DNA of 64,000 nt, from NCBI GenBank assembly GCA_035315185.1, contig DATFYE010000113.1:14202-78201 (forward strand), in the 5' to 3' direction. The notes under the pieces are model-generated. The model saw only the letters and a program-made list of their open reading frames with translations, searched no databases and was not told the DNA's origin. Of this stretch, positions 50,359-50,720 are shown piece by piece. Every line of letters begins with the position of its first letter. The stretch's first letter is position 1. The position numbers were made by a program, and so were the translations under genes. Origin of the DNA: Syntrophorhabdales bacterium (lineage in GTDB: Bacteria > Desulfobacterota > Syntrophorhabdia > Syntrophorhabdales > WCHB1-27).

Positions 50359-50462
50359 GGCAAAGTTCGTAAACTTTGCCTTGATCGCGATTATTCCAAC
50401 CCGCCTGCCGGTGACGGCAGGTGAGGCAAGGAGATCAAGGGATGGATAACCGACACCGGTTA
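50359..50462 (-). terminator. Three perfect hairpins between the precursor gene and the methyltransferase gene (attenuator or partial terminator candidates)
   Basis: GGCAAAGTT-cgta-AACTTTGCC (50359-50380), CCTGCCG-gtga-CGGCAGG (50404-50421) and TAACCG-acac-CGGTTA (50447-50462). There is no clear U-tract. Confidence 0.4.
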
Positions 50463-50720
50463 CGACCTCCCTAGAGCGTTACAAAGCGAGTACGGGCAGT
50501 TCGATGACGTTCCCCCACCCGTCCCTACACTGCAATAGTCGTTCCCAGTCCCTCCGCTGGTGCAAAAGATGGCTCGGTTCCCGCAGCACTGGTCATACGC
50601 GTGATTGAGGTGGCCCGTCCCACTTATCGTTTGCGTTTTGCAATTCACCAGCACAGATTCCTCAGGTTTGCCTTTTACCAGGACAATCAGTTGCGGCTTT
50701 TCCCACTTTCTATGAGCCAT
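50460..50720 (-). CDS. Candidate RiPP precursor peptide (86 aa, Cys/Gly/Ser/Thr-rich C-terminal half)
   Basis: The ATG at 50720 is preceded by a GGGGGG RBS. MAHRKWEKPQLIVLVKGKPEESVLVNCKTQTISGTGHLNHAYDQCCGNRAIFCTSGGTGNDYCSVGTGGGTSSNCPYSLCNALGRS has 7 Cys. It lies 51 nt downstream of a radical SAM/SPASM gene. Confidence 0.65.
   Translation of the reverse strand: MAHRKWEKPQLIVLVKGKPEESVLVNCKTQTISGTGHLNHAYDQCCGNRAIFCTSGGTGNDYCSVGTGGGTSSNCPYSLCNALGRS

Follow-up and report, generated by a model that had tools for sequence, protein, structure and literature searches.

A minus-strand gene at positions 50460-50720 of a 64,000-nucleotide (nt) stretch of DNA from a Syntrophorhabdales bacterium (contig DATFYE010000113.1; the whole stretch is called the window below) encodes a cysteine-rich peptide of 86 amino acids (aa), which is very probably the genuine precursor of a ribosomally synthesized peptide with post-translational modifications (RiPP) that belongs to the adjacent gene cassette. 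The peptide gene is the last of this minus-strand cassette, in which an S26 peptidase, a fusion of the radical S-adenosylmethionine (rSAM) enzyme A with a ScmC-like domain, rSAM enzyme B, a PqqD protein and rSAM enzyme C precede it in this order. A conserved leader, a variable core, multi-copy loci and the presence of maturases alongside related peptide genes all bear out the proposal of an initial annotation, made from the sequence alone, that this small open reading frame (ORF) is a precursor gene. The family to which the peptide belongs is large, uncurated, unnamed and found in uncultured anaerobes, and the window peptide is an atypically long member of it.

The translation of the gene, MAHRKWEKPQLIVLVKGKPEESVLVNCKTQTISGTGHLNHAYDQCCGNRAIFCTSGGTGNDYCSVGTGGGTSSNCPYSLCNALGRS followed by a stop codon, agrees exactly with the annotated peptide of 86 aa with seven Cys, a core rich in Gly, Ser and Thr, and a terminal Ser. 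The Cys residues occupy positions 27, 45, 46, 53, 63, 75 and 80, Arg is found at positions 4, 49 and 85, including the two residues (Arg49 and Arg85) that had been singled out as possible methylation targets, and the final residue is Ser86. The leader comprises approximately residues 1-28, with the conserved positions W6, P9, L11, E20/E21, L24, C27 and K28, and the core comprises residues 29-86 and ends in C80-NALGR-S86. Its 58 residues include 11 Gly, 7 Thr, 7 Ser and 5 Asn, so that Gly, Ser and Thr together make up 25 of the 58. The predicted ribosome-binding site was also recovered, as a run of six G (GGGGGG, 50725-50730, minus strand) that is separated from the ATG at 50720 by the four nucleotides TACA; it is kept as GGGGGCG in the related locus L001. 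A longer ORF with a TTG start (50460-50747, 95 aa) was rejected as a gene model, because members of the family start three to six residues ahead of the leader Trp and because the G-run precedes the ATG.

An exhaustive phmmer search of 1.84 billion representatives with a threshold of E<=1e-3 yielded 209 matches to the peptide, and among the 150 matches listed nearly all are peptides of 50-80 aa with the same leader; P0004 (1137 aa) and P0010 (501 aa) are tandem-repeat false positives. A syntenic ortholog, P0002, also has 86 aa and is 64% identical (E=3e-29). In a word-indexed protein search the identical product was found to have been called in JGI, ENA and Logan assemblies, with neither a name nor a Pfam domain, and a 60-aa peptide was retrieved that shares the leader with the window ORF and has an unrelated core. 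None of the Pfam and NCBIfam models matches the window peptide or any of 123 relatives above noise, and a full-text literature search with cassette names, leader strings and enzyme combinations found nothing relevant on the peptide family.

The alignment of 123 members and the position logo derived from it revealed the leader pattern (M)KKK-W-x-K-P-x-L-I-V-L-V-R-G-K-P-E-E-a-V-L-x-x-C-K, in which the Trp, the Pro and the Cys at W+21 are invariant and the Lys at W+22 is present in 97% of the members. The core that follows consists of about 27-37 variable residues, with no alignment column above about 30% conservation, and most members have four Cys in total, usually three of them in the core. 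At the very end of the core conservation returns. Of 146 representatives, 138 have Ser or Thr at the C-terminus (Ser 77%, Thr 17%), as do 114 of 115 unique peptides (96 Ser, 18 Thr) of an independent sample from genomic and metagenomic loci, and the last Cys is located exactly at position -7, six residues ahead of the final one, in 117 of the 146 representatives and 100 of the 115 peptides of the independent sample. The window peptide obeys this tail rule, C-x5-[S/T]-COOH, and it has the longest core and the most Cys in the sample of 115.

The comparison of the window with locus L001 shows the same division on a shorter evolutionary scale. Nucleotide identity is 93% in the leader and 67% in the core, where 31 codons are changed, 27 of them non-synonymously, while six of the seven Cys and the length are retained. 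The leader thus appears to be under purifying selection and the core to diversify; a conserved leader next to a diverged core with retained Cys and length is the pattern expected of a RiPP precursor, and it is what the initial annotation had suggested looking for in homologs. Divergent family peptides also occur in tandem arrays, with seven genes in L051, five in L039/L040 and five in L008, some of them far from any cassette. These arrays recall prochlorosin-like substrate libraries. No second copy of the peptide was found in the window or its intergenic regions.

The context of the peptide gene is conserved across phyla. A scan with a 12-sequence leader alignment, applied to one genome per GTDB species and to JGI metagenomes, led to 90 further loci, in which counterparts of the window proteins were sought by tblastn. 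Where the contig is long enough, the set recurs at almost every locus, and 61 of the 90 loci have one cassette gene or more. When only the 17 loci are considered at which the peptide gene has 5 kb or more of sequence on either side, 12 contain at least three of the five cassette genes, and the ScmC-like gene is present in all 12. Because these 12 loci carry the cassette, the ORF is conserved beside orthologous maturases; the initial annotation had named the opposite outcome as evidence against its proposal. The recurrent set consists of the ScmC-like gene (free or fused to rSAM A), rSAM B, at least one peptide gene, the PqqD gene, the S26 peptidase gene, rSAM C and often an ABC (ATP-binding cassette) transporter, and its carriers belong to the Desulfobacterota, Acidobacteriota, Chloroflexota, Aminicenantes, Omnitrophota and KSB1. 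The loci L001 and L002 have the same gene order as the window, with 85-93% protein identity. The contigs of P0003 and P0040 are too short to show a gene context.

The constant members in the window, all on the minus strand, are rSAM/SPASM enzyme C (50772-51971, 399 aa), with CNNNCRHC at residue 42 and the SPASM motif CRVCPIINLCIWC, a discrete PqqD-family protein (51958-52266, 102 aa; PF05402, 49.5 bits), which is presumably the leader-binding RiPP recognition element (RRE), and rSAM/SPASM enzyme B (52260-53450, 396 aa), with CNNNCIHC at residue 36. The rSAM/SPASM domain A (54319-55428, minus strand) forms the N-terminal 370 aa of a 654-aa fusion protein and is accessory, being absent where the ScmC-like protein is free-standing. 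A SipW/Sec11-type S26 signal-peptidase-like protease (55725-56297, minus strand; motifs FSMYP, VIHRV and KGDD), the presumed leader peptidase, probably starts at M90 of a 279-aa ORF; across more than 25 loci its homologs conserve G-F-S-M-x-P, V-H-R-V and K-G-D-N as well as an N-terminal helix that is specific to the family. The presumed exporter is an ABC transporter of 623 aa that has no peptidase domain (42590-44461, plus strand) and recurs at cassette loci. The variable part of the locus includes a B12-binding rSAM enzyme with a C-terminal TPR domain (46975-48945, plus strand), presumably a tailoring C-methyltransferase; B12-rSAM genes are also present in L025 and L030.

The remaining part of the fusion protein, residues 371-654 (53464-54318, minus strand), is a ScmC-like kinase-like domain of the HprK/PEPCK fold, with H506, K527 (in GKST) and D543/D544; the family model PF27840 was scored on the L001 ortholog. 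The domain of 284 residues has more than 1000 homologs, and among the 120 matches listed all belong to PF27840 (ScmC) and none has a functional name. Eight residues are invariant in 37 homologs (H136, G151, G156, K157, T159, D173, D174 and R175 in domain numbering), and they include H506, K527, D543 and D544 of the fusion. In a profile search of the PDB the stretch with this tetrad aligned to ..MHG..GDSGVGKS..ADDR.. of the Lactobacillus casei HprK/P (E=0.025), while the best E-value of a single-sequence search was 0.35. The AlphaFold model has a pLDDT of 90, and the Foldseek matches at ranks 1-42 (E 1e-6 to 2e-3), among them all 41 matches at E<=1e-3, are without exception PEPCK or HprK/P structures.

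The HprK-family kinases of lasso peptides, for example PadeK and ThcoK, depend on an essential His-Lys-Asp-Asp motif, and they phosphorylate the hydroxyl group of an extremely conserved C-terminal Ser on the linear precursor (PMC9266682). Because the same tetrad and a nearly universal terminal Ser or Thr are found here, C-terminal phosphorylation would be the most economical prediction, and the terminal Ser that had been pointed out initially recurs, as Ser or Thr, in nearly all of the family. By analogy with the lasso kinases, we rate the chances that Ser86 is phosphorylated as evenly balanced. The kinase does not explain why a Cys is fixed at position -7, which suggests an additional or alternative C-terminal ring.

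Directly downstream of the peptide gene lies the gene for a type-I protein arginine methyltransferase (PRMT)-like enzyme with a C-terminal PqqD-like three-helix domain (49116-50276, minus strand; 386 or 382 aa), the PRMT-like neighbour of the initial annotation. The Pfam model PRMT_C scores 72 bits against a cut-off of 27, and the protein contains motif I (DIGTGSG), the double-E loop (SELLGHFGLEE) and an exact THWKQT loop. Its AlphaFold model (pLDDT 90.7) has only type-I PRMTs among the top 50 PDB matches (E about 1e-29), and the fold matches PRMT1, 6, 8, 3 and CARM1 with target-normalised TM-scores of 0.75-0.88. It thus resembles the eukaryote-type type-I PRMTs in fold over about 320 residues, in about 30% sequence identity and in the three motifs, and it differs from them in that it is bacterial, has the additional helical domain and is embedded in a RiPP cassette. 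This domain comprises roughly the last 56 residues, and its three helices can be aligned with the PqqD family (hhalign 79%, E 1.6e-5); two homologs have precomputed PF05402 hits. NCBI names a protein that is at least 90% identical (HME44293.1, from a Syntrophorhabdales metagenome-assembled genome) '50S ribosomal protein L11 methyltransferase'; because fold and motifs are those of a type-I PRMT with a PqqD-like tail, this name is probably wrong for the large family of more than 1300 homologs.

The connection of the methyltransferase with the peptides is indicated by both gene context and core composition. Homologs are located in rSAM-ScmC-PqqD cassettes in seven of the eight contexts looked up. 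The cores of PRMT loci contain on average 2.25 Arg compared with 0.54 in 107 cores with no visible PRMT (one-sided Mann-Whitney p=1e-4), and Arg is found at -2 or -3 in four of eight cores of PRMT loci compared with four of the 107 others (Fisher p=6e-4), in a comparison that is small and uncorrected for phylogeny and in which some of the PRMT-less loci are truncated contigs. The ortholog P0002, which has no PRMT, contains no Arg in its core, while the window peptide contains R49 and R85. It seems about equally probable that the core Arg of the window peptide is methylated by the PRMT and that it is not. We know of no RiPP with a PRMT-type modification.

The rSAM enzymes carry CxxxCxxC and a full SPASM motif, and their nearest solved relatives are SkfB, PqqE and SuiB. 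In sactipeptides a thioether connects the Cys sulfur to a C-alpha atom and in ranthipeptides to a C-beta or C-gamma atom, and in both classes it is installed by an rSAM/SPASM enzyme. With three to four conserved Cys and two or three rSAM/SPASM enzymes per locus, a substrate of the sactipeptide or ranthipeptide type is plausible, and for Cys-derived thioether cross-links in the core we see an even chance. The likeness to systems of the AlbA, SkfB, CteB and PapB type extends to the Cys in the cores, to the complete SPASM motif of the maturases and to the dependence of leader recognition on an RRE. However, the RRE is a separate protein here and an N-terminal domain there, two or three maturases are present per peptide, and no equivalog threshold is reached.

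From co-occurrence, folds and motifs, which are what has been observed, we infer the chemistry of the whole pathway as follows. In the RRE paradigm a PqqD protein binds the leader as a strand and presents the core to the enzymes, and lasso leaders have a YxxPxL recognition motif, the spacing of which is found in W6-x-x-P9-x-L11. The discrete PqqD protein (51958-52266), which co-occurs with the peptide genes, would thus bind the leader as a beta-strand and present the core to the rSAM/SPASM enzymes B and C, in the window also to A, which would form cross-links at the conserved Cys, most likely thioethers. The ScmC domain fused to rSAM A, which has the catalytic tetrad and the kinase fold and is accompanied by the conserved Ser/Thr end of the peptides, would then phosphorylate the hydroxyl group of Ser86, as PadeK does on the paeninodin precursor. 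As locus-specific tailoring, the RRE-bearing type-I PRMT, to which fold, cassette association and Arg enrichment point, would methylate core Arg, with R85 beside the terminal Ser and R49 as candidates, and the B12-rSAM/TPR enzyme would add a C-methyl group. Finally, the SipW-like S26 peptidase would remove the leader, possibly after the invariant Cys27, where cleavage would satisfy the -3/-1 small-residue rule, and the ABC transporter would export the product.

It should be noted that several observations weigh against this proposal, in addition to the small size of the Arg comparison. At five of the 17 well-flanked loci, which contain orphan genes or arrays of up to seven copies, a cassette is missing within 10 kb; the orphan genes in L010 and L020 adjoin regulators, a hydrogenase and other unrelated genes, and enzymes of another RiPP class were not found beside them. 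The rSAM enzymes of the window reach at best 56-116 bits with models of characterised maturase families that have cut-offs of 265-850 (for example, PapB 56 of 340, AlbA 61 of 850 and StsB 82 of 625 bits), so that they are not equivalogs of any of these, and their relatives in the PDB match at E 1e-6 to 1e-12 in the rSAM core only (SkfB, E 9e-8). They are so distant from any characterised maturase that the type of cross-link is a guess. The similarity of the ScmC-like domain to HprK/P is marginal by sequence, the domain does not reach the cut-offs of the curated HprK models, and the TM-scores to HprK/PEPCK structures are modest (0.3-0.55). L001 has neither the PRMT nor the B12-rSAM gene and contains a glycosyltransferase and another rSAM gene in their place, and these two steps are therefore optional tailoring rather than the core of the system. 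Lastly, ScmA-like peptides that are encoded beside a true ScmC in L027 end in TP, and thus ScmC-type proteins need not act on the very last residue.

These peptides lead to a second cassette, which is also present in the window. SynChlorMet (SCM) is a computationally defined, uncharacterised system of TIGRFAMs/NCBIfam that comprises ScmA (TIGR04252), ScmC (TIGR04249), ScmD (TIGR04248), ScmE (TIGR04250) and ScmF (TIGR04251). True ScmD, ScmE and ScmF genes are located in the same locus 4-11 kb from the peptide gene: the PqqD protein ScmD (46298-46621, minus strand; 117.8 bits, cut-off 100), which has orthologs in L001 and L027, and the rSAM/SPASM enzymes ScmE (41114-42229, minus strand; 612 bits, cut-off 400) and ScmF (39416-40621, minus strand; 610 bits, cut-off 400). 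A second SipW-like S26 peptidase of 142 aa (39017-39445, plus strand; GSSMEP, VVHRV and RGDSN) is convergent with ScmF, is assigned to the SynChlorMet half of the locus and matches the small peptidase of the SCM cassette of L027. The genes that flank the peptide score far lower with the SCM models: rSAM C reaches 87.5 and 82.5 bits and rSAM B 72 and 72 bits with the ScmE/F models, the PqqD protein 24.7 bits with ScmD, and the kinase-like domain 32.8 bits with ScmC (cut-off 125). The flanking enzymes are thus not ScmE/F equivalogs, and the two sets are paralogous cassettes side by side, as they are also in L001 and in L027, a KSB1 metagenome-assembled genome in which each cassette has its own peptides.

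The two systems are alike in their enzymes (two PqqE-like rSAM/SPASM enzymes, PqqD, an HprK-like ScmC, an S26-like peptidase and an ABC transporter) and in a small, Cys-rich precursor that starts with (M)KW-x-x-P-x-L. The complete SCM cassette of L027 contains two ScmA-like peptides (3517-3732 and 4104-4325; MKWAKPGL.. and MKWSTPGL..) with six Cys spaced 9-11 residues apart and a core rich in Gly, Ser, Thr and Asn, which are distantly related to the family. One such peptide reaches 14.7 bits with the curated ScmA model against a cut-off of 35, and the model therefore seems to be too narrow. With 23 conserved residues, the leader of the family discussed here is longer than that of the SynChlorMet precursors, and only this family follows the tail rule C-x5-S/T, in contrast to the TP ends in L027. 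In the 64-kb window no ScmC, no ScmA-like small ORF and no other W-x-x-P-x-L peptide was found, and the window peptide is the only candidate substrate in it for the adjacent ScmD, ScmE and ScmF.

The peptide could therefore be the missing ScmA, or a chimeric substrate common to both cassettes, of which the extra Cys-containing segment rich in Gly, Ser and Thr (about residues 53-75) would be modified by ScmE/ScmF with ScmD, besides or instead of rSAM A, B and C. The best match of the L027 ScmA-like peptides in the window is indeed the 86-aa ORF (E 1.5e-4), the module CTSGGTGNDYC resembles CGSGGTAGSWC of an L027 peptide, and no other member seen is as long and as rich in Cys as the window peptide and its ortholog. 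However, the ScmA model matches neither the window peptide at E<=0.01 nor any of the 123 family members at E<=0.1, and the leader is canonical for the other cassette, with the gene directly downstream of rSAM C as in other phyla. Moreover, the long form together with an SCM set without ScmA is confined to one independent lineage (the window and L001/L002), and L067 has ScmD/E beside the cassette and yet ordinary short peptides with four Cys; for these two reasons we regard a shared substrate as unlikely. An alternative for the terminal residue deserves no more credence than that. In it, the terminal Ser/Thr would accept an rSAM cross-link from the Cys at -7, closing a C-terminal ring of seven residues that would resemble the Cys-Thr thioether of ranthipeptides, and the ScmC-like domain would be a nucleotide-binding scaffold or act on another substrate. 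In its favour are the C-x5-[S/T]-COOH spacing, which is fixed in 80-87% of the members and which a kinase alone leaves unexplained, the rSAM/SPASM enzymes as the constant partners, and the ScmA-like peptides beside true ScmC, the last residue of which is the Pro of TP and not Ser or Thr. Nevertheless, the very last residue with its free carboxylate is the hallmark of PadeK-type substrates (PMC9266682), and the invariant H-K-D-D tetrad in the 37 homologs argues for catalysis rather than scaffolding. It should be added that the roles of the terminal residue in cross-linking and in phosphorylation are not mutually exclusive.

The phosphorylated lasso peptides (PadeA/PadeK, and the systems of ThcoK, SyanK and PsmK) share with the present system an HprK-related kinase with His-Lys-Asp-Asp, a conserved last Ser, an RRE of the PqqD type and the pattern aromatic-x-x-P-x-L in the leader (PMC9266682). 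The peptide might thus be taken for a lasso precursor of the paeninodin type, and the leaders do have sub-threshold matches to NF033534 (23 of 123 members, best E 0.008) and NF033524, which are confined to the leader and reach 12-15 bits against cut-offs of 27-30. However, neither a lasso cyclase (Asn-synthetase homolog) nor a B2 transglutaminase-type protease was found among the 17 locus proteins scanned, so that the locus does not encode a lasso system. In place of such enzymes it has three to five of the rSAM/SPASM type; the kinase-like domain is a member of the ScmC Pfam family and in many cases forms a fusion with an rSAM enzyme, and about 17% of the members end in Thr. Gene content effectively refutes this possibility, and it is barely more probable that the ORF is not a RiPP precursor at all and encodes a small Cys-rich metal-binding or regulatory protein, or is spurious. 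Four spaced Cys could bind a metal, and about 30% of the well-flanked family genes are orphans, some of them beside regulators. This would leave unexplained the hypervariable core next to a near-invariant leader, the tandem arrays of up to seven divergent copies, the constant linkage to PqqD, rSAM/SPASM enzymes, peptidase and ABC exporter, and the conserved length of the ortholog, the frame of which is preserved despite 33% nucleotide divergence in the core.

The precursor gene might be expressed separately from the genes upstream of it. The 51-nt spacer ahead of its ATG (50721-50771, minus strand) is nearly identical in L001 despite the divergence of the core, and within it are TATAAT (50767-50762) and a perfect palindrome, AGCTATAGCT (50756-50747), both conserved with L001, which together (50747-50767, minus strand) may be a dedicated or internal promoter or operator of the precursor gene. 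A scan for consensus promoters and terminators around the peptide gene gave nothing convincing, only weaker promoter-like sites. About 40 nt past the stop codon, a GC-rich hairpin with a 7-bp stem (50404-50421, minus strand; CCUGCCG-UCAC-CGGCAGG; z=-2.4 in the window) may possibly act as an attenuator or stabilise the mRNA. At the equivalent position in L001 there is a 7-bp stem of other sequence, with z about 0, a compensatory-like pattern in a comparison of two sequences, and there is no T-tract.

Further genes at these loci are mentioned for completeness. In the window, a 69-aa acidic ORF (55532-55741, minus strand) lies in the 296 nt that separate the S26 peptidase from rSAM A. The gene for a four-helix-bundle protein (40618-41055, minus strand; TIGR02436, 85 bits) between ScmE and ScmF resembles a passenger that was inserted there. 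A 480-aa HAF-repeat protein is encoded between ScmD and the ABC transporter (44616-46058, minus strand), the L001 counterpart of which has 137 aa; long antisense ORFs in this gene (44619-45818, plus strand) are repeat artefacts. The variable slot after the peptide gene in L001 (10345-13217) contains genes for a 559-aa GT1-family glycosyltransferase and a 366-aa rSAM enzyme, and the core of the L001 peptide lacks Arg and is richer in Ser, Thr and Tyr. The cassette of L024, which has four rSAM genes together with PqqD, a divergent ScmC and a PRMT that is 67% identical to the window enzyme, encodes a third type of peptide (4119-4343; MAGKKKGKKKWVNMEIVKVKLNPEQAVLTCCE..., ending in SS).

While RRE-dependent rSAM/SPASM RiPP cassettes such as SynChlorMet are already known as a kind, the peptide family, the tail rule, the rSAM-kinase fusion and the RRE-tailed PRMT are neither curated nor described in the searchable literature. 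At its most far-reaching, and only tentatively, the window peptide could be taken to found a new class of RiPPs, abundant among uncultured anaerobes, and to be an unusually elaborate member of it. In this class an rSAM-fused HprK-type kinase would phosphorylate the invariant C-terminal Ser/Thr, an RRE-bearing eukaryote-like type-I PRMT would methylate core Arg, and one chimeric 86-aa precursor would serve two paralogous cassettes, the unnamed one and SynChlorMet, with five rSAM/SPASM enzymes and one B12-rSAM enzyme. The identification of the peptide gives a concrete substrate and testable modifications to a cassette of which more than 1000 public ScmC-like proteins are all annotated as hypothetical, and the carriers belong to phyla of which only a few representatives have been cultured (Omnitrophota, Aminicenantes, Desulfobacterota, Acidobacteriota, Chloroflexota and KSB1). 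The combination of the tail C-x5-Ser/Thr-COOH with a kinase-like domain of the H-K-D-D type leads to the sharp prediction that C-terminal phosphorylation would occur outside the lasso peptides, and the RRE-tailed type-I PRMT suggests that Arg methylation can act as a RiPP tailoring reaction. In addition, light is shed on the long-curated and uncharacterised SynChlorMet system, which is a paralog that is often located beside this cassette.

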